Assembly: GCA_963675515.1 (NCBI GenBank)
Contig: OY776328.1
Span: 900,001 to 932,000, forward strand
DNA: 32,000 nucleotides
Origin: Coprobacillaceae bacterium
GTDB taxonomy: Bacteria; Bacillota_I; Bacilli_A; Erysipelotrichales; Coprobacillaceae
Direction: 5' to 3'
Shown: piece by piece, positions 15,816-31,856 of the stretch
How positions within the stretch are numbered: position 1 is the stretch's first letter
How the letters are laid out: each line of letters begins with the position of its first letter
The notes under the pieces: generated by a model
What the model was told of the DNA's origin: nothing
Databases searched by the model: none
Seen by the model: only the letters and a program-made list of their open reading frames with translations
Position numbers and translations under genes: made by a program

Positions 15816-16973
15816 ATGTCAAAAAGATTTATCTTAAATGAAACAAGCTACCATGGAAGCGGAGCAATCAAGGAGATTGTGAGTGAGGCAGTTTCCCGCC
15901 AATTCAAAAAAGCCCTTATCGTAACTGACAAGGACCTGGTGAAATTCCAGGTAGTCAAAAAAGTGACTGACCTTTTGGATGAAGCAGGACTTGCTTATGA
16001 GATTTTCGACGAGGTAATGGCTAATCCGACTATCGAACTGGTTACCAATGGAGTAGCAGCCTTCAAACAAAGCGGGGCGGACTACATGATCGCCATCGGT
16101 GGCGGATCACCTCAGGACGCAGCAAAAGCGATCGGAATCATCATCAACAATCCGGAATTCGCCGATGTGAGATCTTTGGAAGGTGTCGCACCGACCAAAA
16201 ACAAATGCGTTCCAATCATCGCCGTGGCAACTACAGCCGGAACCGCAGCTGAAACGACAATCAATTATGTCATCACTGACGTCCAAAACAAACGCAAATT
16301 CGTCTGCGTCGATGTCCATGACATCCCAGTAGTGGCGATTGTTGATCCGGACATGATGGCTTCGATGCCAAAAGGACTTACTGCAGCTACTGGTCTTGAT
16401 GCCTTGACTCATGCGATTGAAGGCTATACGACTCTAGGTGCGTGGGAACTGGCTGATACTCTTAACCTTAAAGCGATCGAACTGATTGCCAGAAGCTTGG
16501 AAGCTGCCTGCCAGAACGATTCTAAAGGTCGTGAGGACATGGCTTTGGGTCAATATATGACCGGAATGGCTTTCTCGAACGTGGGACTAGGTGTAGTCCA
16601 TGGTATGGCTCATCCGCTAAGCGCATTTTATGACACGCCTCATGGTATCGCCAATGCTGTGTTGCTTCCTTACGTGATGGAGTACAACAAAGACTTCACT
16701 GGAGCGAAATTCAAGGAAATCGCCAAAGCGATGGGTGTAAGTGGTGTCGAAGCCATGAGCGAAGCTGAATACAAGCAAGCCGCTATCGATGCGGTTGTCA
16801 CCCTGTCTAAAAACTGTGGAATTCCTCAGACCTTGAAGGAAATCGGTGTCAAGGAAGAAGACCTTGAAGCCTTGACTGCAGCGGCCATGGCCGATGTGTG
16901 TACCGGTGGGAATCCTCGTCCTTGCCAAAGCGATGAGATCCTGGCATTATACAATACAGCATATAGCGGATAA
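15816..16973 (+). CDS. fucO: Lactaldehyde reductase / L-1,2-propanediol oxidoreductase (iron-containing ADH)
   Basis: 385 aa with RBS AGGGAGAAG. Fe-ADH motifs: GGGSPQDAAKA and GVVHGMAHPLSAFYDTPHG. Its position after rhaD fits reduction of the L-lactaldehyde released by RhaD. Confidence 0.85.
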   Translation: MSKRFILNETSYHGSGAIKEIVSEAVSRQFKKALIVTDKDLVKFQVVKKVTDLLDEAGLAYEIFDEVMANPTIELVTNGVAAFKQSGADYMIAIGGGSPQDAAKAIGIIINNPEFADVRSLEGVAPTKNKCVPIIAVATTAGTAAETTINYVITDVQNKRKFVCVDVHDIPVVAIVDPDMMASMPKGLTAATGLDALTHAIEGYTTLGAWELADTLNLKAIELIARSLEAACQNDSKGREDMALGQYMTGMAFSNVGLGVVHGMAHPLSAFYDTPHGIANAVLLPYVMEYNKDFTGAKFKEIAKAMGVSGVEAMSEAEYKQAAIDAVVTLSKNCGIPQTLKEIGVKEEDLEALTAAAMADVCTGGNPRPCQSDEILALYNTAYSG

Positions 16974-17098
16974 TTTCTGCCAAAATTGTCCAAACCTTCC
17001 ATTATAATTTAATCATTCGCAACTAATCCATTATCAATTTTATAACACTAATCCAATAATATAAGACCGTGCCAAGTGCACGGTCTTTTCATTTGGGA
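16479..17098 (+). repeat. Left copy of the ~620-bp direct repeat (intact fucO 3' end, 3' UTR and terminator)
   Basis: Collinear with 26290-26906 from GAACTGATTG to CACGGTCTTT. My hand comparison gives roughly 45 mismatches or indels in about 620 nt. An extra 9-mer, TTAACCTTA, is shared at 16462 and 26262. Confidence 0.85.
17063..17089 (+). terminator. fucO rho-independent terminator
   Basis: AAGACCGTGC-CAAG-TGCACGGTCTTTT: a GC-rich stem followed by a T-run. Confidence 0.7.
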
Positions 17099-17229
17099 AT
17101 TATTCACTAAGTGTCAATCCATCGTACAAAATCCAGATAAGGTAAGCCTGTTTGTTTAAATAAGCATATATGATTATCAAGTGAGCCGGTCAATTGGCGG
17201 AATCCAATTATCTCCTTGTCAATAACTTG

Positions 17230-17274
17230 TTGATGTCAAGTATACTTGATATCAATAAGTTTCTTCGGTATGAT
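17230..17274 (+). promoter_or_regulatory. Sigma-A-type promoter overlapped by a 26-bp palindromic operator
   Basis: The palindrome TTGATGTCAAGTATACTTGATATCAA (17230-17255) has 24 of 26 positions symmetric. The -35 TTGATA (17246-17251), a 17-nt spacer, and the -10 TATGAT (17269-17274) lie upstream of the 99-aa ORF. Confidence 0.4.
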
Positions 17275-17313
17275 TAAAGAGGTTAATTAATTTACATTAG
17301 GAGGAATAATTGA

Positions 17314-17613
17314 ATGTTTAGTCACATGGATGAAATTGAATTATTACAATATCTAAAAGCTGTCAGAATAACATATTACTTCACGTTGACGTTAGAAGTA
17401 ATTGCTTTCATATATTCTATACCCTGTTTAAACGAGTACTCAAATTTGATATTGCTCTTTATTTTGTCGCAACGTCTTCTTGTTACCATTGTTGTTGAAT
17501 ATTACAAAGTAAAGGCAGGTAAGAAAATGAGTAAAATACGTTTTGTCGCTGGTTGCATATTGATGATTGCTATAATGTTATTAATAATAAAATTGTCCTT
17601 AGTTCCCGGGTAG
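17314..17613 (+). CDS. Hypothetical small membrane protein (about 3 TM segments)
   Basis: 99 aa with a very good RBS (AGGAGG, 8 nt from the ATG). It has hydrophobic segments and a lysine-rich loop. I recognise no family. Confidence 0.5.
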   Translation: MFSHMDEIELLQYLKAVRITYYFTLTLEVIAFIYSIPCLNEYSNLILLFILSQRLLVTIVVEYYKVKAGKKMSKIRFVAGCILMIAIMLLIIKLSLVPG

Positions 17614-17970
17614 CTTTTCTAACCACATCTCAGGTTTTCGGTATCCTGACCGGGCATTCAATACCAAATGCTTTGTAGCAATCATTCGCCTTCTTGAAAG
17701 CTTCTTGAGTGATTGGCTCATATTTTTATCCTCGCTATCATGTCTAAATGATACGCTAAGAGGATGAAAAAGTTAAGGAAAACAGCAATTTTAGAAGGCA
17801 CAAAACACCCTTCTATCGCAACTTTAATTTAGGATAAAACCGAGTAAAAAGTTTACCTAAGTCATGTGGTCATTCAAAAACAACATTCTAAATATTAATC
17901 TTTCAATCTAAATAGACAGAGAATCTGTGAATTAACACGTTACATTTCCATTTTAGAAATAATATTCCTA

Positions 17971-18064
17971 GTTGATGTTGTTGGTGCGAATATTATGATT
18001 TTCGTGCTCATCTGTGGATTTAAAAGAGCTTTTTTGCTTTAATTTTATTATACCAACTGAGAGG
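17971..18064 (+). promoter_or_regulatory. Paralogue of the agrD-like promoter with candidate LytTR direct repeats
   Basis: It aligns without gaps to 31633-31726, about 71 of 94 identical by hand count. Direct repeats TTGGTGC (17981-17987) and TTCGTGC (18001-18007) are 20 bp apart. The -10-like box is TATACC (18049-18054), followed by a GAGAGGGGAG RBS-like run. Confidence 0.45.
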
Positions 18065-18090
18065 GGAGAGTGGTGGAGTAATCAAAAACC

Positions 18091-18258
18091 ATGTTAATGT
18101 TTGAAGTATATTTACTTGTTTCGGCATTTGTTTCATTAATTCTTAAAATGTCACGAGTAATTCCTAGAAAAAATATACTTATTATAGATAAAATGGTATT
18201 GAAATGGCCTGTAGCATTCATTACAGTTGCCTTGAGGATATATATTCACAACAGGTGA
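18091..18258 (+). CDS. Hypothetical 55-aa two-helix hydrophobic peptide downstream of the LytTR-box paralogue
   Basis: ATG at 18091 to TGA at 18256-18258 (MLMFEVYLLVSAFVSLILKMSRVIPRKNILIIDKMVLKWPVAFITVALRIYIHNR). It lacks a well-spaced RBS and overlaps a minus-strand track ORF. The call is weak. Confidence 0.25.
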   Translation: MLMFEVYLLVSAFVSLILKMSRVIPRKNILIIDKMVLKWPVAFITVALRIYIHNR

Positions 18259-18687
18259 ATATATATATTTACTTGGATGGTTGATTATTTTGGACTTTGT
18301 GGACATTATTATGTGTTTCAAAAAATCAAATAAATAATAGTACACGCCAAATAGAGCGTTGGGCCATTCGTGTAGTACGATATCGATAAAATCATTGGCA
18401 CGTAAAAAGGAATACCGCAACTTCTATTTCTGTTTTGGTATTCCTTGTTTCAGTTCTTTGATTTCCTTGCAGGTTTACTGCCGCAAATGTGTTGGCAATA
18501 CTTCATGGTAAGGAAGTAGTTTCTTAATTCTTCTTTATTTTCAGGATCGTTATTCGGTAGTCGCGCTAGAATCCATGATTGAAGAATAAAACACGCACAC
18601 ACCAAACATATTAAAAAAATGAATCTGAAATTATCGAATTCATTTATAGTTGTTTACTAAAATTTAGAAATCAATAGATTTAAAGTG

Positions 18688-18716
18688 TCGACATGAGTTA
18701 ATTTGAGTATTATACT
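18688..18716 (+). promoter_or_regulatory. Sigma-A-type promoter upstream of the small membrane protein and bacteriocin genes
   Basis: TCGACA (18688-18693), a 17-nt spacer, then TATACT (18711-18716). Confidence 0.45.
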
Positions 18717-18812
18717 ACGTAAAGAGTAGCTAACTGAGGTTTAATTGATTATTAGCTGCCTATCTGCTGCATCTAAACGATAAATATTAAATATGTAATT
18801 TAAGAAAGTAAA

Positions 18813-19028
18813 ATGAGGATTCGAATTTTGAAAATTATTATTATGCATTTGCCATTCGTTCTATTTATAATTACTGCGATATTTTTAAGAATAATTAATG
18901 TACCTTTAGTTTATAAGGCTATATTAATTGTGGCGGTAATTATTTACGGTGTGTTTTTTACAAAAAAATCTAGGAGTTATTTTCAAGACATGCTCTCTGG
19001 CAGCAACGTAAATGAGAACAGGAAATAG
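18813..19028 (+). CDS. Small cationic two-TM membrane protein; candidate circular-bacteriocin immunity protein
   Basis: 71 aa with two hydrophobic helices and a basic tail (KKSRSYF...NENRK). It lies immediately upstream of the bacteriocin gene. Size and character match the small immunity proteins of circular bacteriocin clusters. The assignment rests on context only. Confidence 0.45.
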   Translation: MRIRILKIIIMHLPFVLFIITAIFLRIINVPLVYKAILIVAVIIYGVFFTKKSRSYFQDMLSGSNVNENRK

Positions 19029-19134
19029 ATTTATAGAGGGGTTAAAATTATTTCCAATTTGGCCGTTCTATTCTACATTATCATCAAGTTGATGAAGTTA
19101 TAGATATATATAATTAGAAAGGGGGGTGAATCAA

Positions 19135-19368
19135 ATGGGAGCATTGTTATTTTTAGTCGCTGGAACATTAGGGGTCAGCACAACTATTGCAACATCGGTT
19201 GTTAGCATTGTATTGACAGGGTCAACTATTATCACTATTATTTTGGCACTTACTACAATCCTTTCTGCTGGTGCAGATGCAATTTTGACAATGGGATGGA
19301 CAGCTTTCGTTACAACAATTAAGACTATTGCTCAAAAGCAAGGTATTAAATATGCTGTGGCCTGGTAA
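19135..19368 (+). CDS. Circular bacteriocin precursor, circularin A/uberolysin-like (77 aa: ~7-aa leader plus ~70-aa core)
   Basis: The ATG at 19135 lies 8 nt after the RBS AAAGGGGGG. The track start at 19126 is a GTG inside the RBS. The sequence is MGALLFL/VAGTLGVSTTIATSVVSIVLTGSTIITIILALTTILSAGADAILTMGWTAFVTTIKTIAQKQGIKYAVAW. It aligns along its whole length with my recollection of circularin A (MFL/VAGALGVQT...LMTIGWATFKATVQKLAKQSMARAIAY). The C-terminus resembles AS-48 (...AVIAW). DUF95 and ABC ATPase genes lie downstream. Confidence 0.8.
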   Translation: MGALLFLVAGTLGVSTTIATSVVSIVLTGSTIITIILALTTILSAGADAILTMGWTAFVTTIKTIAQKQGIKYAVAW

Positions 19369-19436
19369 CTATTCCAAAAAATCAATAGTCGAATGGCGTG
19401 TGCTACACGCTTTCGGCTATTTTAATTATAATAAAG

Positions 19437-21114
19437 GGTAGTGTCAAATTCGTTATGGAAAAACAGTGATTTTTTCATAATAGAGTTTCGTGTTCGTTTT
19501 GTCGGTAATACCTAAGCGCTTCTTCCATGAGGATGTTCCACTTGTTTGGCATGTTATGAGTTTTCTTCAAACAATCCAATTCAACTGGTGGCTTGTATCC
19601 CAGGGAGGTGTGATTTCTTAGGAAATTGAAATATGTTGTGAACAGACACATGAAATCATTTGCGCCATCCAATGAGTTGAAGCCATTTTTGATCGCGTAG
19701 GTTTCTCCAAATGTTCTATTCAAACGCTCTATTATTTGTTTGGCAGGGCGATGTTCTTTTGATACAGGATCATCATTCGTAAGTCCAATTACTTGAGTCA
19801 CTTTAAAAAATACTCTTTTGATTTGAAAATACTGTTGAGCGGCTTTATATATCGGATTTCCGTCAACAACGATCTCAAAGTCAGTCGGTAACTTTTTGAA
19901 TTTTCTCATGACTGAATAAAAGGCATTTATAGCCGCAAAGGTATCTCTTTTCATGAAAATTCGATACGAAGTTATTATTTTTTTCCTAACATCGCACATG
20001 AAAAATACATAGGCTTTTTTTCCTAAAACTTTGACGTATGTTTCGTCTCCACAATGATACGAGTTCAAATCGTGCTTGTAGTTATCCATCCACGGAAATA
20101 GGAGATGGCTGGCTGCCTGAGCGTAGTTAGCTATTGTTTGATGGGATATTTTGATATCGTGAATCTCGTATAAAACCAAAGCGGTTTTTCTAAGAGACAG
20201 GCCATAATTAACGTAATACGTCAACGCTAGGCCTAAAACATGCTTAGAATTGTGGATTCTGGAGAGATCAACTTTTGATGGTGCTATTTTCAGCTGGATG
20301 CTTTCAAGTTTTTCGATTGAAGCATCGAAGACGCGGGTTATGTAGTGAAGCGAGAATTTAGAAGGATTTACCTTGTATTTCTTTTTATCTTCTTTTGTTA
20401 GTTTCTTCAACTCACTCTTATAGTGAGAACATCTAGAGTTTTGACATTTATAGACATCAAAACCATCACGTGATTTGATCAACGTCAACTTGCGGCCGCA
20501 GTGAGGACACTTGCGGATCAATTGTTGCGAATAACTCTTATTAAGTGAGAAAGTCGTATCACAAACTTTGCACTTAACTTGGGATTTCTTGATTCCGTTG
20601 TTGAAAGTCAGGTATTCATGAGTGGCGCCGCAATGTGGGCAAACAGTATCTTCAGATGGATAGTCTTTGCCTTCATGTCTAAACACCGGTTTCAAAGGTC
20701 GTTTATGTTTGGATTCATACTCATCCCTGGCCTGTTGAAATGGGATGGGGATTAATTGCGGTTCAATAACAGGAAGCGGATGCATTTTGAAACGACGATA
20801 TGGTTCACTCTTACTTGAATCCGTACCATCACTGGGAAGATGCTTTAGCAGGAAACACTCAAATTTGTACAAAAATCTACGAATGATATTTAAAAAATTG
20901 ATTATTAATGATATAATTTTGACCATGGTAACAGTCCTCCTTATTGTGGTTTAGACACTTACAATTATGAGGCTGTTACCTTTTTTTGTAAACAAAATGG
21001 TCAAATTATAGGGTGAAATCCGGGGGAATTTACCTAAATATATAAAAAACCAAGGTAGAATGCGGTTTTCCAGTTAATTATGGTTGTAAATAACTAACTG
21101 GTTTTGACACTACC
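19437..21114 (-). mobile_element. IS6-family-like insertion sequence (long form with Zn-finger N-terminal extension), 1678 bp
   Basis: Perfect 12-bp terminal inverted repeats GGTAGTGTCAAA sit at 19437-19448 and, as complement, at 21103-21114. An 8-bp target duplication TAATAAAG lies at 19429-19436 and 21115-21122. There is a single transposase ORF. Confidence 0.8.
19475..20926 (-). CDS. IS6-family-like DDE transposase with N-terminal zinc-ribbon region
   Basis: 483 aa with RBS AAGGAGG. CxxC pairs: CPHCG...CKVCD and CPHCG...C. The DDE core resembles IS26/IS257-type transposases (GDETYVKVLGKKAYVFFMCD, VVDGNPIY, QIIERLNRTF). Confidence 0.85.
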   Translation of the reverse strand: MVKIISLIINFLNIIRRFLYKFECFLLKHLPSDGTDSSKSEPYRRFKMHPLPVIEPQLIPIPFQQARDEYESKHKRPLKPVFRHEGKDYPSEDTVCPHCGATHEYLTFNNGIKKSQVKCKVCDTTFSLNKSYSQQLIRKCPHCGRKLTLIKSRDGFDVYKCQNSRCSHYKSELKKLTKEDKKKYKVNPSKFSLHYITRVFDASIEKLESIQLKIAPSKVDLSRIHNSKHVLGLALTYYVNYGLSLRKTALVLYEIHDIKISHQTIANYAQAASHLLFPWMDNYKHDLNSYHCGDETYVKVLGKKAYVFFMCDVRKKIITSYRIFMKRDTFAAINAFYSVMRKFKKLPTDFEIVVDGNPIYKAAQQYFQIKRVFFKVTQVIGLTNDDPVSKEHRPAKQIIERLNRTFGETYAIKNGFNSLDGANDFMCLFTTYFNFLRNHTSLGYKPPVELDCLKKTHNMPNKWNILMEEALRYYRQNEHETLL

Positions 21115-21137
21115 TAATAAAGGTAGGTACATTTATT

Positions 21138-22259
21138 ATGAAAATTACTAATTATGTTAAAATGATATGTTTATTTTATAAAAACATATCACTTGAGAAA
21201 ATATCATTTATAGCAAGGAAAATGAAAAGTGATAATCCATTTAGAATGCATTTAATTTGTGAATCATTGAAACTGTTTAGTTCAATTTTGATGATTATCT
21301 TGTTATATAATAATGTATATAGTTATAACACAAATCTATTTGTTTCCATTTTATTGTTAATTTACCTTGTACAAAATTTGTTGATGCTTGTGGGTCCCTG
21401 GAAGATAATAAGAAAGAGATTCAAATATAGTTACTTACGGATGACTGCTTCCGGAGATTGTATGTATCTCCGAAAAGTTATTGTGCTTAACTTTTTTGTT
21501 GAATATTTATTATCACTTCCAATGAATTTGCCTATTTTGATTGGACTTATAGTCACAGCCAATTTGTTTGCGGTGCTGTTAGCCATAAATATTAGTGCGT
21601 TATCATTTCTTTTCTACATAATCAGACATTCTCAAAAGATGTTGAGAAAAGGACCAATGGCTACAATAATGTTTTTTGTTTCACGTATGTGCACATTTTC
21701 AATAGGTTACTTATTTGCATTTATATTATCAAGATTGGTCTTAATATCTAGATCTGGAATAAAAGAATTTGGTTTGTCCGTAATGTACGTTTCATGGGTG
21801 GATAGTATAATTAACGATTCTTTGTTTTCCATAACAAAATATTTTCGTAATATATTATTAAACGTCGATTACTATCTAGTAAACGACTATCGAATTATTA
21901 GTTTTCTATTAATATTGATATTATTTTTCGTATTTATTTCGTTAATGATTTTGAAACGTATTTCTAAAGAAATCATACAAATAACATACAAATTACCAAA
22001 TTGCTATATTAACTCATTAAGTAAATTTGAAAATAAACATGAAATTGATAATCCGTTTTTGTTCAAAGATCTGTGCATTTTCATTGATAAAACAAGGAAA
22101 CTTGAGTACAGTCCAATGGAGTTCCTATTTACGAATGAGCTGTTCTTTTTTATAGGGATAAATATAGTATTTTTACCACTAATCAATAATTATTTTATCT
22201 TTGCGTTTTTATTTGTTTTTGAACTTTTTTTCTTAATTGACCACCAAATACATCCTTAA
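21138..22259 (+). pseudogene. N-terminal part of the IS-disrupted large polytopic membrane protein (CirB/As-48B-like maturation protein)
   Basis: Multi-TM ORF. Its last 9 codons and the stop at 22257-22259 are read from the left end of an IS. Native sequence ends at the TSD at 22224-22231. Confidence 0.7.
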
Positions 22260-22289
22260 ATCTAATAATGATTTACACACCGTTTTTCC

Positions 22290-23433
22290 GGCTATGTTAG
22301 CCCAAAGCAATGCTTTCATAGATGAAGCCTGTTCCAATATAATTTTCTCGCCTAAAATCACAATGGCATTGATAAATATCCACAAAATAATCATGGACGT
22401 CTCTAGCTCTTGTTTCAATCATGTATGCTATGTACGCCAGATATTCATTAAGGTATTTAGAAGATATCCCATTGTGTTTTTTCATATACTTTTCAATTTG
22501 AGAATGCACGTAATTGACGTGATTTATGTGGTAGATTCCTCGCTTTGCCTTGCTTTTTGCTGGAAACGCATAATGGTCGATTTTCAGACTCTCACTTAAT
22601 CTTCGATATACGAATAATCCATCCGTACAAAGCGTTGTTGCTTTTTGAAGGTGTTTCAGATATACAGCGGTTGTCGTTTCGTTATCAAGCGTTGTCGATC
22701 CGATCTTAGCGACCTTGAGTAATATATGGCCGTTCCTGTCAACCGCGCTTGCTATTTGTACGGCATCGGTTATATTTTGATCTTTCTTGTCTCTACGGTT
22801 ACCTTTTCGTCCTCTTTTATAGGGCTTCCTGGGTAATGGTTTTGCCGCCTGTTTACTGTGATTCCCGGAATAACTGATGTTTACGCTCATTTCATCTAAT
22901 TCCACAATCCCGCTAAGCTCAACGTTTTCCATCCTGTGAGCTAGCGCGTTCAATATTTTATGGCGCATGAAAAAACTGCATTTTAACGACACTCCTGCAT
23001 ATTTGGCACAGTCCCTCAAATCTTCGTCATGGCTCATTATTATCAGATACTTAAGCCAGGTTATATAAGAAAGTTTGGTATTCTCCAAAATTGTACCAAC
23101 ATACGGAGTAAAAGTTTTACCGCAATCAATGCATCTAAAACGTTGTGTTTTGTTTTTGTAGTGGCCATCTCGTTTAATATGATGGTGACCGCAACGAGGG
23201 CACGAAATTGAATCGTTGTGTTTGGCTTCTAATGCATCCACAAGGATCTTGGTGTAATCATTTAGAAGTTGACGGTCCTGAATGAAAACAATTAGGGCGT
23301 TTAAATCATCGCTGTTTAAAGTATCCAGTTCATTCTTAATTTTTTCTAATTCCATGGTTATCCCACCTCTTCTCTATTATACACCTAATTCTACAGGAAA
23401 AGTCGATAAACATCTTTATGGGCTAACATAGCC
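22290..23433 (-). mobile_element. IS1595-family-like element A (1144 bp), nested 50 bp inside the left end of element B
   Basis: 14-bp perfect inverted repeats are GGCTATGTTAGCCC (22290-22303) and GGGCTAACATAGCC (23420-23433). The 8-bp target duplication GTTTTTCC lies at 22282-22289 and 23434-23441. Confidence 0.8.
22297..23355 (-). CDS. IS1595-family transposase (zinc ribbon plus ISXO2-like DDE domain)
   Basis: 352 aa with RBS AGAGGTGGG. Zinc ribbon: CPRCGHHHIKRDG...FRCIDCGKTF. It has an ELDEMSV acidic motif. The stop codon lies in the terminal repeat. Confidence 0.85.
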   Translation of the reverse strand: MELEKIKNELDTLNSDDLNALIVFIQDRQLLNDYTKILVDALEAKHNDSISCPRCGHHHIKRDGHYKNKTQRFRCIDCGKTFTPYVGTILENTKLSYITWLKYLIIMSHDEDLRDCAKYAGVSLKCSFFMRHKILNALAHRMENVELSGIVELDEMSVNISYSGNHSKQAAKPLPRKPYKRGRKGNRRDKKDQNITDAVQIASAVDRNGHILLKVAKIGSTTLDNETTTAVYLKHLQKATTLCTDGLFVYRRLSESLKIDHYAFPAKSKAKRGIYHINHVNYVHSQIEKYMKKHNGISSKYLNEYLAYIAYMIETRARDVHDYFVDIYQCHCDFRRENYIGTGFIYESIALG

Positions 23434-23511
23434 GTTTTTCCGCCTTCTAAATTCTTGGTTTTTAGTGATTAGACTTCATCACTTTGGTATGATATTACCG
23501 AGGTGATATCA

Positions 23512-24483
23512 ATGGCAATAAAACTAAAACCGAAGAAAGATTCTTTAATAACTCTTACTAGAAAATATGCTAATGACAATGATGAATGTGTGAAGTTCTT
23601 CTTCACTATCAAGTGGCCTGAAGGGTTCTACTGTGAAAAGTGCGGTTGTACGCATTACTACTTCATTGAAAGTAGAAAAGCTTATCAATGCAAGGAATGC
23701 AAACATCAGCACTATCTGCTAGCAGGTACCATATTCCAGGACACCAAGCTCGAACTTTACAAACTGATCTTAGGCATGTATATTTTCTTTACCTCCAATA
23801 AAGGTGTTTCAGCAATAGAACTCGCAAGTGAACTCGACGTCAATTACAAAACAGCCTTACTTCTTGCCAGAAAATGTCGAATTTTGATGGCTCAAAGCTG
23901 TAGTGAAAAGATGCTCGATAGCTTGTTTTATGAAGCTGACGTCGCATATATTGGATCCAAGAGCAAAGAGAAGAATCGTCAAGGTTGTGCTACAGAGCAA
24001 CAGCCTTTTTTGGTCGTACTTTCGACGGATGCAGAAAATCATTACCCAAAATACATCAAACTTCACCCTATTCCAACCGACAATCAAATCCAGGTAAAAA
24101 ATGTCATCTCGAAGAGCATCAAACTATCAAAGGATCGAAAACTGAATACCGATGGCAAAACTACATTTAACAAAATTGAGGATGAGATTGAGTTGTGTAA
24201 GGAAAAGATCATTTACAAAGAGGATGATCATCGCTTGTATTGGATTAACACTTTGATTGGTGATATCAAAAACAATATCACTGGAATATATCATGGCGTA
24301 GCAAAGCGGGATCTGCCTTTATTCCTAAATGAGCAGGAGTGGCGCTTCAACCACCGTTATACAGGTGCTTATTTCATGGATAAAATAAGAAAATATCTGC
24401 TACTTTCATCGCCGATGCCAAAAAGAAAAATCGTAACGGTTCTTAACTTAGCAGAATCATATTTTTCAAGTACATGTATCTGA
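23512..24483 (+). CDS. IS1595-family transposase of element B
   Basis: The likely start is the ATG at 23512, 6 nt after GAGGTG. The track start at 23503 is the GTG inside that RBS. N-terminal motif: FFFTIKWPEGFYCEKCGCTHYY...YQCKECKHQH...AGTIFQDTKL. It has an EADVAYIG motif. The stop lies inside the right inverted repeat. Confidence 0.8.
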   Translation: MAIKLKPKKDSLITLTRKYANDNDECVKFFFTIKWPEGFYCEKCGCTHYYFIESRKAYQCKECKHQHYLLAGTIFQDTKLELYKLILGMYIFFTSNKGVSAIELASELDVNYKTALLLARKCRILMAQSCSEKMLDSLFYEADVAYIGSKSKEKNRQGCATEQQPFLVVLSTDAENHYPKYIKLHPIPTDNQIQVKNVISKSIKLSKDRKLNTDGKTTFNKIEDEIELCKEKIIYKEDDHRLYWINTLIGDIKNNITGIYHGVAKRDLPLFLNEQEWRFNHRYTGAYFMDKIRKYLLLSSPMPKRKIVTVLNLAESYFSSTCI

Positions 24484-24503
24484 TGGTCAATTAAGCTTTT
24501 TTT

Positions 24504-25107
24504 TATAATTGTAGGAAATTTAAGAATTGTAACATATAGATTTGATGAAGTGTTTAGATTTAGAAGCGATATCGATAAATGGAAAATAATTTACTTGTCG
24601 GGCACTAGAGGAACATATCAGGTCTTGTTTTCAAAATATTATTTGTTGAAGCACCTTGCCAAAATCCCTTGTTTATTTACTTGTTTTGTGTTATTTGTAA
24701 TGTTTTCTGGCTATATGTCAATATATGCTACCATTCTTATTCTAGATATTGCGATCGTCATTGCACTCTTTAGCGATATAGTTAAATGGATACTGAGAAC
24801 AGATTACGATTTTTATTGTATAATTATTAAAAACAAGTACGCAGTTAATGAGGTCTCGATTGAGGATTATTTGGGTTATAATCTGGTATCCAATGCAAAT
24901 AAAACGGTACATAGGTTGTTTTTGTTTGTTACATTTTTTATTTTAATATTATGTTCGTTTTTGAAGTTAATTTCAGGATGGCAATGGGTTATATTTTATG
25001 TTACATATTTAATTGTTTTCGTGATCGATATAAAAGCAAATTCTATGTACTATCCTACGGATAAAATAATTAAAATTGGAAGGAGAGAATTGAATGAGCA
25101 GAATTAA
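24504..25107 (+). pseudogene. C-terminal part of the IS-disrupted CirB/As-48B-like membrane protein
   Basis: The frame is open from the right target duplication. The track ORF 24550-25107 merely starts at an internal GTG. Joining 22231 to 24504 keeps the frame (see findings). Confidence 0.7.
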
Positions 25108-25621
25108 TAGAATAATATCCGGGCATGTCAAATACTTATGTATTTCTATATCTGTTTATATTTTAGGGATAATTTTTGGAATGATTATTTCAGCTGATAC
25201 GAAATTGACTATCAATCCAACTAGTATGCAATTTGTTGAAACATTTGTCCACAATGAAATAATCGGGTTAGGTTTGGTTGTTTTTGGAATTGTAACGTTT
25301 GGATTTTTCAATACTATTTTCCTGGCATACAATGGGTTTTCATTGGGTTTGATAATAATTGGCGTATACAATCAATATGGTATAAGTCCATTGATTTCTG
25401 GTGTTGCCCCACATGCTCTAATTGAAACTTTTGCCATAACAATGTCATGTACGCTAGGATATGAGTCGTTGCGCCTTGTAAAGATGGTAAAAAATAATTT
25501 AGATTCGGATATAAAGGGAAAAATTTATATAAGTGATTTTATAATATTACTAATATCCACTAGTTTGCTATATGTTGTCGGGGCATTCATAGAATCATCA
25601 TTCTCAAATGTAATAATATAA
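25094..25621 (+). CDS. DUF95/SpoIIM-family membrane protein (As-48C/CirC-like)
   Basis: 175 aa with about 4 TM segments and RBS GGAGAG. It overlaps the upstream gene by 14 nt. The conserved PH-x-x-x-E motif (APHALIETFAIT) is typical of SpoIIM/DUF95 proteins found in circular bacteriocin clusters. Confidence 0.7.
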   Translation: MSRINRIISGHVKYLCISISVYILGIIFGMIISADTKLTINPTSMQFVETFVHNEIIGLGLVVFGIVTFGFFNTIFLAYNGFSLGLIIIGVYNQYGISPLISGVAPHALIETFAITMSCTLGYESLRLVKMVKNNLDSDIKGKIYISDFIILLISTSLLYVVGAFIESSFSNVII

Positions 25622-25634
25622 AGGGGGCAAGAAA

Positions 25635-26264
25635 ATGAATGATGTAGTACTTGATATAAAAGAGTTATCATATAGTTATGACGGGAAAAAATTTATCTTA
25701 AAAAATATAAACTTTTTCATTAGAGAAGGAGAGGTGGTAAAACTTAGTGGACCTAACGGGGTTGGCAAATCGACATTTCTTAATATAGTTTCAGGTCTAA
25801 TTGATGATTCCAATTTAGAATATACTGCGGAATTTCAAAATGAGGAGATAATATTTGAAAATATGCGTTCTAGAATATCTTTTGTACTGGATACACCAGA
25901 ATTATTCGATCAACTTACTGGATCTGAAAACATTAAAATGTACAGCTTACTGTTTGAGTGTGATGATGCATATTTTGATAGAGTTCTGGACTGGTGCAAT
26001 AAATATCGTATAATAGATTTTTTAAGCCGTCCGGTAGAAGAGTATTCCTTGGGTACTCGACATAAATTGTTCTTAGCGATACTCATATCGAGAAAAGTTG
26101 ATCTTATTCTTTTAGATGAGCCTTTCAATGCTTTGGATGATTCTAGTAGAAAATACCTTGTTGGGCATATTAATTCTTGTAGAGACTCTTCGTTCATCAT
26201 TGTTTCACATCTTAATCAACCTGGTCTGAAATTGGATAGGGATTTTGAAATGAAATTATATTAA
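25635..26264 (+). CDS. ABC transporter ATP-binding protein (As-48D/CirD-like)
   Basis: 209 aa with RBS AAGGGGG. Walker A: GPNGVGKST. Degenerate signature: YSLGTRHKL. Walker B: LILLDEPFNALD. No cognate permease gene is adjacent. Confidence 0.85.
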   Translation: MNDVVLDIKELSYSYDGKKFILKNINFFIREGEVVKLSGPNGVGKSTFLNIVSGLIDDSNLEYTAEFQNEEIIFENMRSRISFVLDTPELFDQLTGSENIKMYSLLFECDDAYFDRVLDWCNKYRIIDFLSRPVEEYSLGTRHKLFLAILISRKVDLILLDEPFNALDDSSRKYLVGHINSCRDSSFIIVSHLNQPGLKLDRDFEMKLY

Positions 26265-26289
26265 CCTTAGTTCCTAGTCGGCTTTTCTT

Positions 26290-26783
26290 GAACTGATTGT
26301 CAGAAGCTTGGAAGCGGCCTGCCAGAACGATCCTAAGGGTCATGAAGACATGGCTTTGGGTCAATACATGACCAGAATGGCTTTCTCGAACGTGGTACTT
26401 GGTGTGGTCCATGGGGTGGCTCATCCACTAAGCGCATTTATGACACGCCTCATGGCATCGCCGATGCCGTGTTGATTCCTTACGTGATGGAGTACAACAA
26501 AGACTTCACCGGAGCAAAATTCAAGGAAATCGCCAAAGCGATGGGTGTAAGTGGTGTCGAAGCCATGAGCGAAGCTGAGTACAAGCAAGCCGCTATCGAT
26601 GCGGTTGTCACCCTTTCTAAAAACTGTGGAATTCCTTAGACCTTGAAGGAAATCGGTGTCAAGGAAGAAGACCTTGAAGCCTTGATTGAAGCTGCCATGG
26701 CCGATGTGTGCACCGGTGGGAATCCTCGTCCTTGCCAAGGCGACGAGATCCTGGCATTATACAAAACAGCATATAACGGATAA
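26290..26783 (+). pseudogene. Decayed duplicate of the fucO 3' end (last ~165 codons)
   Basis: Collinear with 16479-16973. It has a 1-nt deletion in the T-run at ~26437-26439 (GCATTTATGAC versus GCATTTTATGAC). It has an in-frame TAG at 26637-26639 (CAG in the intact copy). Several substitutions are non-synonymous. There is no 5' part and no start codon. Confidence 0.85.
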
Positions 26784-26906
26784 TTTCTGCCAAAATTGTT
26801 CGAACCTTCCAATATAATTTAATCATTTGCAACTAATCCATTATCTATTTTATAACACTAATCCTATAATATAAGACCGTGCCCTTGGCACGGTCTTTAA
26901 TTTGAA
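26290..26906 (+). repeat. Right copy of the ~620-bp direct repeat (fucO remnant, 3' UTR and terminator copy)
   Basis: See the left copy at 16479-17098. The terminator copy AAGACCGTGCCCTTGGCACGGTCTTT lies at 26873-26898. Confidence 0.85.
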
Positions 26907-27024: not shown

Positions 27025-27591
27025 TCAGGATTGTTCCGGTTTACTTGGTAATAATACCGAATTCAATATTATTGCCGATATCGATAAAAAAGATCCGGTA
27101 GCGGCGTAGCTAGTATATCCGCTTTTTACGGATGATAAAATCAAGATCGTTATAGTATTCAGCGAATACAAAATAAGTTTATTTCGAAGATCATTTCTCT
27201 CAAAAGTCCTTTTCCAAGGATTAATATTTATCAGCACAAATATTGAAAGAAATAGAAAGTACCCCAGGACATAGATCATAATTGAAGGCATAATGGAACT
27301 TAATAACATCCCAATTGACCAAATAATAATACCTAATAAGTAGCATCCAAAAGGTGTTTTGGAATGATACCCGGCATTGTTGGTCCTGAAGACAAGAAAA
27401 CACGATAGCATTATCAGGGATTCCAAAAATCTGCCGCTAAGTATCGAAATGATTAAATAACTAATGGAATTTAACGCAAATAATATTATAGCGGATAAAG
27501 CATATTCTATTTGCTGCATTTTGAATGCGTCATCAATGCAATTTTTTTGGCAAATTTTACGTGAAAGACGTGAAACAAATACGTGCAGCAT
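27025..27591 (-). CDS. agrB: AgrB-family AIP-processing membrane peptidase
   Basis: 188-aa polytopic protein. The motif FRTNNAGYHSKTPFGCY places a His and a Cys 7 residues apart, as in S. aureus AgrB (RRHAHGAHAPSSFWCY). Its ATG lies 1 nt after the kinase stop, with the GAGGTG RBS inside the kinase 3' end. Confidence 0.8.
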   Translation of the reverse strand: MLHVFVSRLSRKICQKNCIDDAFKMQQIEYALSAIILFALNSISYLIISILSGRFLESLIMLSCFLVFRTNNAGYHSKTPFGCYLLGIIIWSIGMLLSSIMPSIMIYVLGYFLFLSIFVLININPWKRTFERNDLRNKLILYSLNTITILILSSVKSGYTSYAATGSFLSISAIILNSVLLPSKPEQS

Positions 27592-27592
27592 T

Positions 27593-28861
27593 TTACACCT
27601 CAGTATTATAAATATAAATATTAATGTCTTGATGGGTTACCGCCGGGATTAGGATGGTAACTTTAAATGTTGCCTCCGTATAACTGACATCAATCATGCC
27701 ATCGTATTTTTTTACTATTCTTCTGATGTTTTTCAAACCGTAACCGTGATTAGCGCCACCCTTTCGTGAAAGGATTTTAGAATCACTTAAAATGATTTTT
27801 CCGTCAAATGTGTTCTCACAAATTATTCTAATCATTTTGTTTGGAAGTAGAGCTATTGATATACGAACCCTTTTATTCTCTGTGGTTTGAGCAGCTTCTA
27901 AAGCATTGGAAGTAATATTTCCAAATAATGAACACAAATCAAAATTATCGATGTGAGAAATGTCCGGAACTTCTAACTCGATATCGAGTGAAACGCCCAA
28001 TAAATTACTTTTACTGATAAAGTCACTTATTGTAGAGTCAAGGTAGATGTTTCCTGTATTCACAACGATAATTTTGTTGTCCATTTCCAATCCGATATTA
28101 TTGATATATTCTTCCAATTGAGTATATGACTTATTCGAGACAAGATGGCCAAGCGTGTTGAGGTGGAATTTTACGTCATGCTTCCATGATTTAAGGTGGT
28201 TGTATGATTTGATTGTTTTGTCATAAAGTTCGGTTCTGAGTTCATTCTCTTTAAGCAATAGGTCGATACTGTATTTTCTCGTTAAGTTTGTAATTAGTAT
28301 TCTTGTTTGAACAAATGAGATTAAATTGACTGCAAAAAGGGAGACAGTAATGACCAACAAATACAGATTATCTGAATTAAACTCTAAATAATGTCTTAAT
28401 ATAAATACCATGGATAAAACTGAAGCCAGTGGCACTACCATATATAAATAAACGTATCTTTCATTATTATCAAGATTGTTTGAATAAGAACCTCTGTTCA
28501 TTTGAAGAGAGATAAGAAACATCAGTATAAATATTATTGTTCTTGTAATAATCATCAGCAGTAATCTGATGAACTCTTCTCCCATCAGCTGCTGGACATC
28601 AATGCTTGAAAACGATGTTACCAGTGATATGGTAATCAATTCGACCAGGTTAAATATCAAAAAAGCAACAACTGGAACTAAAAATTTAAATAGAAAGCGC
28701 CCGCTGTAAAAAATCAGTGAATATAAGATATAAATTAGAAATACCAGCATTACTGCGCTTGAATTGTATTTTTGAATGGTAAACACAGTTAAAATTGCAG
28801 ATATAAAAATGAAAATTGCTGCGTTGATATAACGCATTGGAAGTTCTTTATTTACTAGCAT
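27593..28861 (-). CDS. agrC: AgrC-like (HPK10-type) membrane sensor histidine kinase
   Basis: 422 aa with about 6 N-terminal TM helices. H-box: WKHDVKFHLNTL. N-box: GNITSNALEAA. G-box: NHGYGLKNI. The RBS at 28861 is poor, so the start is uncertain (the alternative is the MRYIN Met). Confidence 0.8.
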   Translation of the reverse strand: MLVNKELPMRYINAAIFIFISAILTVFTIQKYNSSAVMLVFLIYILYSLIFYSGRFLFKFLVPVVAFLIFNLVELITISLVTSFSSIDVQQLMGEEFIRLLLMIITRTIIFILMFLISLQMNRGSYSNNLDNNERYVYLYMVVPLASVLSMVFILRHYLEFNSDNLYLLVITVSLFAVNLISFVQTRILITNLTRKYSIDLLLKENELRTELYDKTIKSYNHLKSWKHDVKFHLNTLGHLVSNKSYTQLEEYINNIGLEMDNKIIVVNTGNIYLDSTISDFISKSNLLGVSLDIELEVPDISHIDNFDLCSLFGNITSNALEAAQTTENKRVRISIALLPNKMIRIICENTFDGKIILSDSKILSRKGGANHGYGLKNIRRIVKKYDGMIDVSYTEATFKVTILIPAVTHQDINIYIYNTEV

Positions 28862-28978
28862 TGAATCAATAAAAAACAGGACGAGAAAGACATCTACTAA
28901 ACCCCCTGTGTTAGGATAGTTGTCGTATAGAACGTTTTAGATTATACTTAGTAAAAAGTATACCAAGGAGACCTAGCC

Positions 28979-29455
28979 ATGACCAAAACTTATACGACAG
29001 AAGAAAAAATCAAGATCATCAGTGAGGTTGAACCACCACTTAACAAGACGGTTGTTCAGATTGCTGAAGAAACCGGCATCAAGACGACTACACTATATTC
29101 TTGGAAAAGAAGATACCTCAAAAATCATTCAGTTTCTAAAATCAAAGAACGCTACAACAAGGAACAACGTTTCCATTTCATCGCTGAATCCGCTCCCCTC
29201 AGTGAACATGAGCTCGGTGAATATTGCCGCAAAAAAGGGATTCATCCTGATGAGTTGGTTAAGTGGAAGAAGGAATTCCTAAGCCCTGAAACCAAGTCCG
29301 ATTCTCTAAAAGATGACCTGCAAGCCGAACGGCAAAAGCGCAAAGAGCTGGAAAAACAATTGCGCCGCAAGGAAAAGGCATTAGCCGAGGCAGCTGCATT
29401 ACTGGTTCTTGAAAAAAAGCTCCAGGCAATTTGGGACGACAACGAGGAAGATTAA
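28979..29455 (+). CDS. IS3-family transposase OrfA (HTH plus leucine-zipper region)
   Basis: 158 aa with RBS AAGGAG. HTH: VVQIAEETGIKTTTLYSWKRRY. It has a coiled-coil C-terminus. The A7G slippery site lies near the 3' end. Confidence 0.85.
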   Translation: MTKTYTTEEKIKIISEVEPPLNKTVVQIAEETGIKTTTLYSWKRRYLKNHSVSKIKERYNKEQRFHFIAESAPLSEHELGEYCRKKGIHPDELVKWKKEFLSPETKSDSLKDDLQAERQKRKELEKQLRRKEKALAEAAALLVLEKKLQAIWDDNEED

Positions 29456-30507
29456 CGACTCTCAAATTGCGCAAAGAAATCGTTACGTTAATCAAAGAAG
29501 CGAACGCCAATGGTGCCCGCTTGATCCCGGCATGCAAGGTGGCAGGGATTTCGAAACGGACGTATGAAAGATGGACTCAAGAAGACAATATTTCCACTGA
29601 TAGGCGTAAAGAACCACGGCTAAATCCTCCAAAGAATAAGCTCAGCAATGAAGAACGCGAAGCTATAATGAGAATAGTTAACAGTCCTGATTATAGGCAA
29701 TTGACACCGGCTGAGATTGTTCCGTTACTGGCTGACAAAGGTATCTATATTGCTTCAGAATCAACCATCTACCGTCTATTAAGAGAGTTGAAACAATTGA
29801 AACATCGCGGCCGTACAGCCCCGAAGCACCACAGACAAGCCACCACCCATATTGCAATCAAACCGAACCAAGTTTGGAGTTGGGACATCACTTGGTTGCA
29901 CCGCAAGGATATCCGAGGAGTTTATTACAAGCTATACATGATAATGGACATCTTCAGCCGCAAAATTGTCGGGTACGAAGTATGGGAGACGGAAAACGCT
30001 GAATATTCCGCAATCCTGATGCAACGCACACTTTTAAGCGAACGAATCAATGGCGAACCGCTGGTCTTGCACTCCGATAACGGTGGTCCGATGAAGGCAG
30101 CTACATTTCTGGGGATGCTCGAGAATCTTGGTGTGCAAAGCTCATTTTCTAGACCGCGGGTAAGCAACGATAATCCATATTCTGAATCGTTGTTTAAGAC
30201 ATTTAAATATATGCCAAAATACCCCACAAGCGGTTTTGAATCACTCACACACGCTAGAAGCTGGGTCAATGAATTTGTACAATGGTACAACGAAATTCAC
30301 TTACACAGCGGAATCAAATACGTGACACCCGCCAGTCGCCATCGAGGGGAAGATGCTGCGATACTGCAAAAAAGGAAAGAAGTTTATGCTGAAGCTAAAA
30401 TGAAAAACCCTGAACGATGGAGTGGATCAGCCAGAGACTGGTCCTGGATTGAAGCAGTTGCCCTAAATCCGACAAAAGAAAGTGAATTATTGATCAACGA
30501 AGTTTAA
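29431..30507 (+). CDS. IS3-family transposase OrfB (rve DDE integrase core), expressed as an OrfAB fusion by -1 frameshifting
   Basis: It lies in frame -1 relative to orfA. DDE core: WSWDITW, LHSDNGGPM, NPYSESLFKTFK. Confidence 0.85.
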   Translation: MGRQRGRLTTLKLRKEIVTLIKEANANGARLIPACKVAGISKRTYERWTQEDNISTDRRKEPRLNPPKNKLSNEEREAIMRIVNSPDYRQLTPAEIVPLLADKGIYIASESTIYRLLRELKQLKHRGRTAPKHHRQATTHIAIKPNQVWSWDITWLHRKDIRGVYYKLYMIMDIFSRKIVGYEVWETENAEYSAILMQRTLLSERINGEPLVLHSDNGGPMKAATFLGMLENLGVQSSFSRPRVSNDNPYSESLFKTFKYMPKYPTSGFESLTHARSWVNEFVQWYNEIHLHSGIKYVTPASRHRGEDAAILQKRKEVYAEAKMKNPERWSGSARDWSWIEAVALNPTKESELLINEV

Positions 30508-30610
30508 CAAGCGCAACTCAAGAATTTGCATAATTAATATGAAAAAAATGCGTCAACTATATTGACAAATACCGTAAATTGATAATAATCTCAGACATTA
30601 AATACATGTG

Positions 30611-31318
30611 CTATCCTCCAAAAAATTTCAAAAACAGATTTTGTACATCTTTCATTTTTGATCTCCCTACCGGAATTGAGTCTCCGTTAGAAATTTGAAC
30701 ATACTGACTTTTAAACGAAGCCACATAGTTCAAATTTACAATGTATGACCTATGTATTCTAAACATATCATGGTCAATCAACAAATCTTCAATTTTTGAA
30801 ATTGGAATATTGATTTGCTTTTCTTCTTCTATCATATGAAATATGCAATTATGTTTATCTGACTCAACATACATAATGGATTTTGTATCTATCGTATAGT
30901 AACCGTTTGATGCGTCTAAACGAATTAATCTGTCGATGTTTTTTTGAAGAGAATTAGCAATCTGATCTAATGTTTTATTTAATCTAGTCTGGTTGACGGG
31001 CTTTACAATATAATCCAGCGCAGACACCTCATATCCATTGATTGCAAACTGGCTGTGTGAAGTAATAAAACATATTATGATATTCTTATTGTTTTTCCTG
31101 AGCTCTTTAGCAAATTCAATACCGGAAATTTCAGGAATTTCTATATCGAGTAGTGCCACATCGCAGTCCATTGCTTCTCCAGGAATCATGTATGATACTT
31201 TATTGGTAACGGTAAATTCTACAATGTTATTTGTGTTTTTTGCCCAATTGTCGATATATCCAATTAAAATGTCCCGGTCTATTTTAGAATCTTCAGCGAT
31301 GAAAAAACTAATGTTCAT
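30611..31318 (-). CDS. agrA: LytTR-family response regulator (AgrA-like)
   Basis: Start moved to MNISFFIAEDSK with RBS GAGAGGGG. The track start at 31447 adds 43 implausible residues. The receiver domain has DVALLDIEIP, and the C-terminal LytTR domain has IMYVESDKHNCIF...FRIHRSYIVNL. Confidence 0.85.
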   Translation of the reverse strand: MNISFFIAEDSKIDRDILIGYIDNWAKNTNNIVEFTVTNKVSYMIPGEAMDCDVALLDIEIPEISGIEFAKELRKNNKNIIICFITSHSQFAINGYEVSALDYIVKPVNQTRLNKTLDQIANSLQKNIDRLIRLDASNGYYTIDTKSIMYVESDKHNCIFHMIEEEKQINIPISKIEDLLIDHDMFRIHRSYIVNLNYVASFKSQYVQISNGDSIPVGRSKMKDVQNLFLKFFGG

Positions 31319-31632
31319 GTAATTATCCCCTCTCTCATTTTGTTTCAATTCTACATGATTGTAACATATATTTTGCAGTTTGTATAATTGTTCCGAACAT
31401 AAATCCGTCAATATAAAGGATACAGGAGAGTATTTTTGTATAAACATAATACATTACTTAATTAATCATCAAATACAGGTGAGCACGGTATTGGATTATT
31501 GTCGATTTTGAAAAATCACCAAATGTCGCGCATTTTGGATGTAGTAATATTTCTTCGTTACTGACTATGAACTCCAAGATGTATCTGTTGGCTAATTAAG
31601 AAACATTATTTTTTTGTTCAATTATTTTCTTT

Positions 31633-31726
31633 GGTGTTGTTGTTGGTGCAAAAATTTTGCTTTTCATGCTCAATAGTGGAATCTAAAGAAATTTGATGTT
31701 TAAAATTAATTATACTAAATGAGAGG
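31633..31726 (+). promoter_or_regulatory. agrD-like promoter with candidate LytTR direct repeats
   Basis: Direct repeats TTGGTGC (31643-31649) and TTCATGC (31663-31669) are 20 bp apart. The -10 box TATACT lies at 31711-31716 with no good -35, which suggests activator dependence. RBS GAGAGGAG follows. It is paralogous to 17971-18064. Confidence 0.45.
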
Positions 31727-31736
31727 AGATAATCGA

Positions 31737-31856
31737 ATGGAATCAAAAAAAGTTGTGAAATTTTTGATAAAAATATCACAGGCTGCTAGCGACATAACTT
31801 GCTGGGGTGCATTTTTTCAACCTGATGCGCCAAAACGAAAATTTATTTCAAAATAA
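31737..31856 (+). CDS. agrD: AgrD-like autoinducing-peptide precursor (39 aa, below the ORF-track size cut-off)
   Basis: The peptide is MESKKVVKFLIKISQAASDITCWGAFFQPDAPKRKFISK, with RBS GAGAGGAG 7-8 nt upstream. It has an amphipathic basic N-terminus. A single Cys is followed by 4 residues (CWGAF). The tail is aromatic-Q-P-x-x-P, comparable to L. plantarum LamD (CVGIW/FETKIPDE) and Listeria AgrD (CFMFV/YEPKSP) as I recall them. Confidence 0.65.
   Translation: MESKKVVKFLIKISQAASDITCWGAFFQPDAPKRKFISK

Follow-up and report, generated by a model that had tools for sequence, protein, structure and literature searches.

An IS3-family element interrupts the receptor gene of a divergent agr-type locus from a Coprobacillaceae bacterium

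Introduction

The agr quorum-sensing system of Staphylococcus aureus, encoded as a single agrBDCA operon together with RNAIII, has counterparts whose genes are arranged differently. The agrACDB genes of Clostridioides difficile are reversed relative to those of S. aureus, and the agr genes of Clostridium acetobutylicum form two transcription units (PMC3754575). Natural agr-defective variants are also on record, including the methicillin-resistant S. aureus ST239 strain HC1335, in which IS256 truncates agrC (PMC5174738; see also PMC7891712 and PMC9270034). Here, we describe an agr-type locus on a 32,000-nucleotide stretch of contig OY776328.1 (hereafter the window) from a Coprobacillaceae (Erysipelotrichales) bacterium, in which an insertion sequence (IS) of the IS3 family interrupts the gene for the receptor kinase AgrC.

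The locus resembles S. aureus agr in its AgrB His/Cys dyad, in an AgrD propeptide with a cysteine five residues before cleavage and a proline in the follower, in an HPK10-type polytopic kinase and a LytTR regulator, and in a divergent control region with paired repeats. In contrast to the single staphylococcal operon, the signal gene stands apart from the gene for its processing enzyme and on the opposite strand; protein identity to S. aureus is very low, with AgrB and AgrA scoring far below the cutoffs of their equivalog models, and no RNAIII-like RNA was detected in an Rfam scan of the window. Placing the regulator first recalls the non-staphylococcal orders of C. difficile agr2 (agrACDB) and Enterococcus faecalis fsrABDC, but in those systems agrD lies beside agrB on the same strand, whereas here agrD diverges from agrA, and agrB comes last and is coupled to agrC. 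The inactivating event likewise differs from that in HC1335, as the element is an IS3 rather than an IS256, the host is a commensal-type Coprobacillaceae metagenome-assembled genome (MAG), the insertion sits at the extreme 5' end of the gene, and related species carry independent IS hits. A candidate regulatory logic is shared with three-component systems of the Pln, Blp, and Com type, in which the pheromone gene and a bacteriocin operon share one type of paired-repeat promoter, through which a LytTR regulator activates them; the peptides of those systems are linear, of the double-glycine type, and leave the cell by ATP-binding cassette (ABC) export, whereas the signal here is of the AgrB/AgrD kind and the candidate target is a bacteriocin of the circularin A/uberolysin type.

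Both the type of system and its mode of inactivation are already known; of modest note are the gene arrangement, the clade of the host, the recurrence of IS hits, and a possible tie to a bacteriocin. The agr system is well studied in pathogens and hardly in gut Erysipelotrichales, and our limited literature searches found neither a description of this particular gene layout nor, among the papers listed, one linking agrB with Coprobacillaceae or Erysipelotrichales. The clade offers an alternative, conserved operon arrangement in which the signal gene is uncoupled from the processing enzyme, a predicted autoinducing peptide core (CWGAF) open to synthesis and testing, and a natural series of intact and IS-inactivated alleles with which to ask if the loss of quorum sensing seen in staphylococci also occurs in commensals. 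If real, the possible link to a circular bacteriocin at the promoter level would make a simple and testable regulon.

An IS3-family element splits agrC after codon 11

Gene calls from an open reading frame (ORF) listing and profile searches (Pfam, NCBIfam/TIGR) of the window recovered all four agr functions through family models: AgrB (PF04647, 7.8e-20), an AgrC-type kinase (HATPase_c_5, 3.7e-19), a LytTR regulator (LytTR, 8.6e-18), and an AgrD propeptide. The locus is a genuine agr-type cyclic-peptide quorum-sensing system and a divergent member of that group. An earlier reading of the window from its letters alone (the sequence-only reading) had proposed these four functions in a non-canonical order, with the propeptide gene on the opposite strand and diverging from the regulator gene, and an agrB start codon 1 nucleotide past the kinase stop, and all of these proposals are borne out. 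The order is agrD (plus strand) divergent from agrA-agrC-agrB (minus strand), rather than the canonical agrBDCA, in the window and in three related loci (L001, L003, and L006). Two of these relatives, L006 (Logan SRR23823845, a 140-kb contig with 91–96% nucleotide identity over aligned blocks) and L001 (Logan SRR11702756), lack the IS3 element and carry an uninterrupted agrA-agrC-agrB run with a divergent agrD. The kinase stop (27593–27595) and the agrB ATG (27591–27589) are 1 nucleotide apart in the window, as in the related loci, and the ancestral junction upstream places the agrC ATG 3 nucleotides past the agrA stop. Because the same order and the same junctions recur in L001, L003, and L006, the arrangement is ancestral to the clade and unrelated to the IS.

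We determined the insertion breakpoints by blastn against the uninterrupted L006 and L001 loci. The alignment with L006 breaks at 28900 and 30575, where the L006 positions overlap by 3 nucleotides, and family models, breakpoints, and in silico excision together define a 1673-bp IS3-family insertion sequence at 28902–30574 (plus strand), bordered by a 4-bp target duplication (TAAA) at 28898–28901 and 30575–30578. Removing 28902–30574 and one TAAA copy in silico restores a 445-amino acid agrC ORF in frame. The element thereby interrupts the agrC coding sequence after codon 11, leaving two fragments on the minus strand. The 5' fragment (30575–30607; codons 1–11, MYLMSEIIINL) retains the native ATG, 3 nucleotides past the agrA stop, with a Shine-Dalgarno (SD) sequence, GGAGG, in the 3' end of agrA, and it matches the N-termini of the AgrC homologues P0001 and P0003 and of the L003 kinase. 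The 3' fragment (27593–28897) holds codons 12–445 and the stop, and is 94% identical to the 445-amino acid P0001.

The longest ORF remaining in agrC (27593–28861, minus strand) encodes 422 amino acids and opens at Met24 (28861), with codons 12–23 lying directly 5' of it at 28897–28862. Because the IS interrupts agrC after codon 11, this ORF is an N-terminally truncated remnant that lacks the first helix, the native start, and the native SD. Met24 is not the native start, since the corresponding residue of L003 AgrC is Ile; since Met24 is preceded by TTTTTTATTGATTCA, without an SD, whereas the native ATG follows GGAGG; since residues 1–27 resemble a transmembrane segment, the first of about seven hydrophobic segments by hydropathy; and since the in-frame stop 5' of Met24 lies within the IS, with no alternative start codon in between. 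The 23 extra N-terminal residues (MYLMSEILINLVDVFLVLFFIDS) are also present in L003 and in the 62%-identical paralogue P0003, and the intact AgrC of L001 and L006 is 445 amino acids long. The H-box (KHD) and the ATP-binding motifs are invariant in the alignment and the HATPase_c_5 domain is present. An intact polytopic HPK10-type kinase is encoded in L001 and L006 and not in the window, and for annotation the 422-amino acid kinase should be flagged as a disrupted gene rather than an intact one.

These coordinates revise the sequence-only reading on two points. It had the IS3 element splitting about 86 nucleotides of original spacer between regulator and kinase; that interval in fact comprises a 3-nucleotide spacer, 69 nucleotides of agrC (23 codons), and the 4-bp target duplication. 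It had also held that the IS3 separates kinase-agrB from the regulator promoter; the element does lie between agrA and the rest of the operon, but it does not leave an intact kinase-agrB pair, as it cuts the kinase coding sequence after codon 11.

The element itself has features typical of the IS3 family. Its orfA (28979–29455, plus strand; HTH_Tnp_1, 7.8e-17) and orfB (29431–30507, plus strand; rve, 1.5e-15) match NF033516 (transpos_IS3) at 190.6 bits against a cutoff of 160 and overlap in the −1 frame, with an A7G frameshift site, AAAAAAAG, at 29412–29419. The terminal inverted repeats are imperfect (20 nucleotides, 75%), and the canonical tips, TG...CA, do not fall exactly at the junctions. 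The element is oriented antisense to the agr operon and carries one weak terminator-like hairpin on the minus strand. Since all other agr ORFs are still intact, the insertion is probably recent.

Two promoter-like sites, each a consensus match only, lie at the edges of the element. The one in its left end (TGGTCA-17-TG-TATACT, 28985 to 28957 on the minus strand, with an extended −10) points outward toward agrC' and agrB, and the one spanning its right end and flank (TTGACA and AATAAT, 30562–30589 on the plus strand, 11/12 matches) is directed antisense into agrA. Overall, the number of promoter-like matches in the region does not exceed the chance expectation (24 found, 22.2 expected), and the generic promoter and terminator scans, performing at chance level, were used as leads only.

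Related loci, recurrent disruption, and a second agr locus

Among 5.8 billion proteins, close relatives of the kinase, of AgrB, and of AgrA number no more than a handful. A genome scan with the AgrC alignment returned only a Coprobacillaceae MAG (L004) and an unrelated LytTR/kinase pair without AgrB in a Eubacterium MAG, no relatives emerged from a metagenome scan that used the AgrB alignment, and exact-sequence look-ups of the window AgrC, the IS orfA product, P0003, and P0043 (an AgrB paralogue) returned no record. One relative, OY780959.1, is recorded as 'MAG: Coprobacillaceae bacterium'. More distant AgrA homologues at 32–35% identity (P0049 and P0052) proved to come from LytTR systems other than agr, which have soluble kinases and ABC proteins, and are uninformative on the spread of the gene order.

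Mobile elements have disrupted three of the five readable loci: the window, L003, and a third represented by L002 and L004, which are the same locus. In L003 (6957–9999) a different IS3-family element, its transposase 54% identical, lies inside agrC at about codon 193. In L002/L004 (L002 9131–11272) IS66 genes adjoin a truncated agrA that keeps its 3' part and an agrC that has lost its N-terminus, and agrB and agrD are missing. The damage in both of these related MAGs is independent of the window's IS. These genomes are IS-rich in general, so that selection against the receptor is no more than plausible.

The window's host may have more than one such system. Paralogues of AgrA (P0048, 62%), AgrC (P0003, 62%, 445 amino acids), and AgrB (P0043, 67%) are recorded on a 2,881,239-bp contig, as is the window AgrB, and because they share this contig we infer that the same chromosome holds a second, apparently intact paralogous agr locus.

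Consequences of the insertion and alternative explanations

Taken together, we put at roughly 80% the probability that this is an agr-type locus whose receptor gene has been broken by the IS3 element, with signal sensing most likely lost. In the proposed mechanism, modeled on homologous systems, AgrB (His76/Cys83) would remove the C-terminal tail of AgrD after ...TCWGAF to yield a CWGAF thiolactone, which a seven-helix, 445-amino acid AgrC would sense and relay by phosphorylating AgrA. Phosphorylated AgrA would then bind a paired TTGGTGC/TTCRTGC motif and induce agrD, and would probably also induce a duplicated promoter before the circular-bacteriocin island described below. The IS deprives the receptor of its native start, its ribosome binding site (RBS), and its first transmembrane helix, and it parts agrC'/agrB from the agrA promoter by about 1.7 kb of IS DNA in antisense orientation. 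Most likely the locus is signal-blind, with AgrB expression and signal processing probably reduced, and agrB may now rely for its expression on read-through or on IS-derived transcription.

Several points weigh against this account. The outward promoter-like site in the left end of the IS (28985 to 28957) could give some expression of agrB and the truncated kinase, and the second, paralogous AgrC (P0003) might cross-activate AgrA. The paired motif has a period of 20 nucleotides, start to start, one base short of classic LytTR sites, for which spacings of 21–22 nucleotides are known. The account as a whole is drawn from sequence.

The strongest competing explanation, although an unlikely one, is that the insertion rewired the locus, such that an IS-borne promoter expresses AgrB and an AgrC without its first transmembrane helix, and that the truncated kinase, constitutive or still ligand-responsive, alters signaling. 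Histidine kinases can become constitutively active when their sensor part is truncated at the N-terminus, the ORFs are intact with agrB preceded by an SD of its own, and the extended −10 site in the element faces in the required direction. However, promoter-like matches here occur at chance level, Met24 has no RBS, and a receptor short of one of its seven helices should have an inverted or broken membrane topology. Two relatives with outright destructive IS events in the same locus are also better explained by decay.

Much less credible is an insertion into an intergenic spacer, leaving the 422-amino acid kinase and AgrB intact, merely uncoupled transcriptionally, and working through read-through or IS transcription. 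The uninterrupted ORF with all of its catalytic motifs, the intact agrB with its own SD, and the outward promoter-like site would each suit this explanation, but the 23 conserved residues at the start of AgrC are encoded in the IS flanks, which rejoin in frame, and four homologues, including the 62% paralogue, start 23 codons earlier. The absence of Met at position 24 in L003 and of an SD before Met24 in the window argues further against it. An assembly artefact, in which a repeated IS was misplaced here in a metagenome-assembled chromosome, is very improbable: the sequence evidently comes from a long (2.88 Mb) metagenome-assembled contig and the region is rich in IS elements, but the clean 4-bp target duplication and flanks that rejoin exactly in frame are the signature of true transposition.

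AgrB, AgrA, and the AgrD signal

The processing enzyme and the regulator remain intact in the window. AgrB (27025–27591, minus strand) is a 188-amino acid propeptide-processing membrane peptidase that scores 71.4 bits against PF04647 (cutoff 23) and whose gene has its own SD (GAGGTG). His76 and Cys83 are invariant in the family alignment and, in a pairwise alignment with S. aureus AgrB, match its catalytic residues His77 and Cys84; a Protein Data Bank sequence search with AgrB gave no meaningful match. As the sequence-only reading had stated, no agrD lies 3' of agrB: between agrB and a hairpin at 26873–26897 there are only very short ORFs, including one of 8 codons (MNMRLLEQ), and no AgrD-like peptide. 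This GC-rich hairpin, read from the sequence, is likely a bidirectional terminator and is a copy of one at 17063–17087, which scored as terminator-like on both strands.

AgrA (30611–31318, minus strand) is a 235-amino acid LytTR response regulator (Response_reg, 1.7e-15) that shares 97% identity with P0045, which agrA of L006 encodes. Its ORF spans 30611–31447, and the RBS and gene calls in relatives place the true start at ATG 31318. Against NF046049, the AgrA equivalog model, it scores 46 bits (4.5e-12) with a cutoff of 400, marking it as a distant relative rather than an equivalog.

The signal gene agrD (31737–31856, plus strand) encodes a 39-amino acid autoinducer propeptide, MESKKVVKFLIKISQAASDITCWGAFFQPDAPKRKFISK, that scores 26.5 bits against TIGR04223 (cutoff 19). 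Its ORF spans 31719–31856, with the true start at ATG 31737, again placed by relatives' gene calls and an upstream RBS, GAGAGGAGA. Orthologues occupy the same position in L001, L003, and L006, and the core ITCWGAF[FY]QP is kept across the four loci; the window sequence reads ...DITCWGAF/FQPDAPKRK, where the slash marks the predicted cleavage site, five residues after the core Cys and ahead of a Pro-containing follower. The Cys+4 rule, together with the follower motif [FYH]QPxxP known from clostridial AgrDs, predicts the five-residue ring CWGAF. Clostridial AgrD followers resemble the QPxxPK motif found here, and the S. aureus follower DEVEVP has its Pro at +6, as does FQPDAP.

In the related loci, a secreted protein of about 256–348 amino acids with no Pfam match is encoded directly 3' of agrD on the same strand (L001 1357–2139, L006 8716–9486, L003 4744–5790) and may be co-transcribed with it. 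The window ends 144 nucleotides past agrD.

The control region and a candidate AgrA box

The divergent agrA/agrD control region (31319–31736) holds the element TGTTGTTGGTGC at 31638–31649, a paired motif, TTGGTGC-N13-TTCRTGC, at 31643–31669, and an insertion of about 148 nucleotides. Promoter alignments show both the paired motif and TGTTGTTGGTGC to be invariant in five promoter copies. The motif occurs in the window only at 31643–31669 and 17981–18007, and once each in L001, L003, and L006; it is a candidate AgrA box. The sequence-only reading had described the agrD promoter as repeat-containing; the conserved pair emerges from cross-locus comparison, whereas a repeat search gave only short two-copy matches that may be due to chance.

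Because the paired motif is missing from the agrA-proximal half of the intergenic region, which has sigma-70-like hexamers, agrACB may be constitutive and agrD alone autoinduced. The segment of about 148 nucleotides (31453–31600) lies between the candidate AgrA box and the agrA promoter. It is missing in L006, L001, and L003, has no other copy in the window or the fetched loci, and has no Rfam match; Rfam and tRNA scans of the window as a whole were empty.

A duplicated agrD promoter region facing a bacteriocin island

The second copy of the agrD promoter (17879–18090, plus strand), with its paired motif at 17981–18007, lies in the left part of a circular-bacteriocin island and faces the bacteriocin genes. 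It is 92% identical to L001 2536–2353 but only about 79% to the agrD promoter of the window itself, and it has an RBS followed by an unrelated 55-amino acid hydrophobic ORF (18091–18258). By analogy with bacteriocin loci under LytTR control, this duplicated promoter with its candidate AgrA box suggests that the bacteriocin was or is a quorum-sensing output.

One might go further and propose that the clade places the signal gene alone, and not the processing, sensing, or response genes, behind an AgrA-responsive promoter; that a copy of this promoter recruits a horizontally acquired bacteriocin island as output; and that repeated, independent IS knock-out of the receptor (three of five loci) reflects selection for signal-blind gut commensals, comparable to agr-defective staphylococci in infection. 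We hold this combined proposal to be speculative and, as a whole, doubtful.

The island is a low-GC insertion of about 9.1 kb (17148–26289), absent from L006, the closest relative, between agrB and an iron-containing alcohol dehydrogenase (Fe-ADH) gene of a rhamnose-utilization cluster. It contains the components of a circular bacteriocin cluster: a precursor of the circularin A/uberolysin type (19126–19368; TIGR03651, 71.4 bits against a cutoff of 30.7; PF09221), a SpoIIM/DUF95 membrane protein gene (25094–25621; PF01944), and an ABC ATPase gene (25635–26264; PF00005). The integrity of the cluster is doubtful because three transposase genes lie inside it, one IS6-like (19475–20926) and two of the IS1595 type (22297–23355 and 23503–24483). 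Two unknown membrane ORFs (21138–22259 and 24550–25107) may represent a single gene that the IS1595 copies have cut in two. Direct repeats of 615 nucleotides (16479–17095 and 26290–26904, 92.9% identical), comprising the Fe-ADH 3' end and the terminator hairpin, bracket the island, and the second Fe-ADH copy (26290–26783) is a frameshifted pseudogene fragment.

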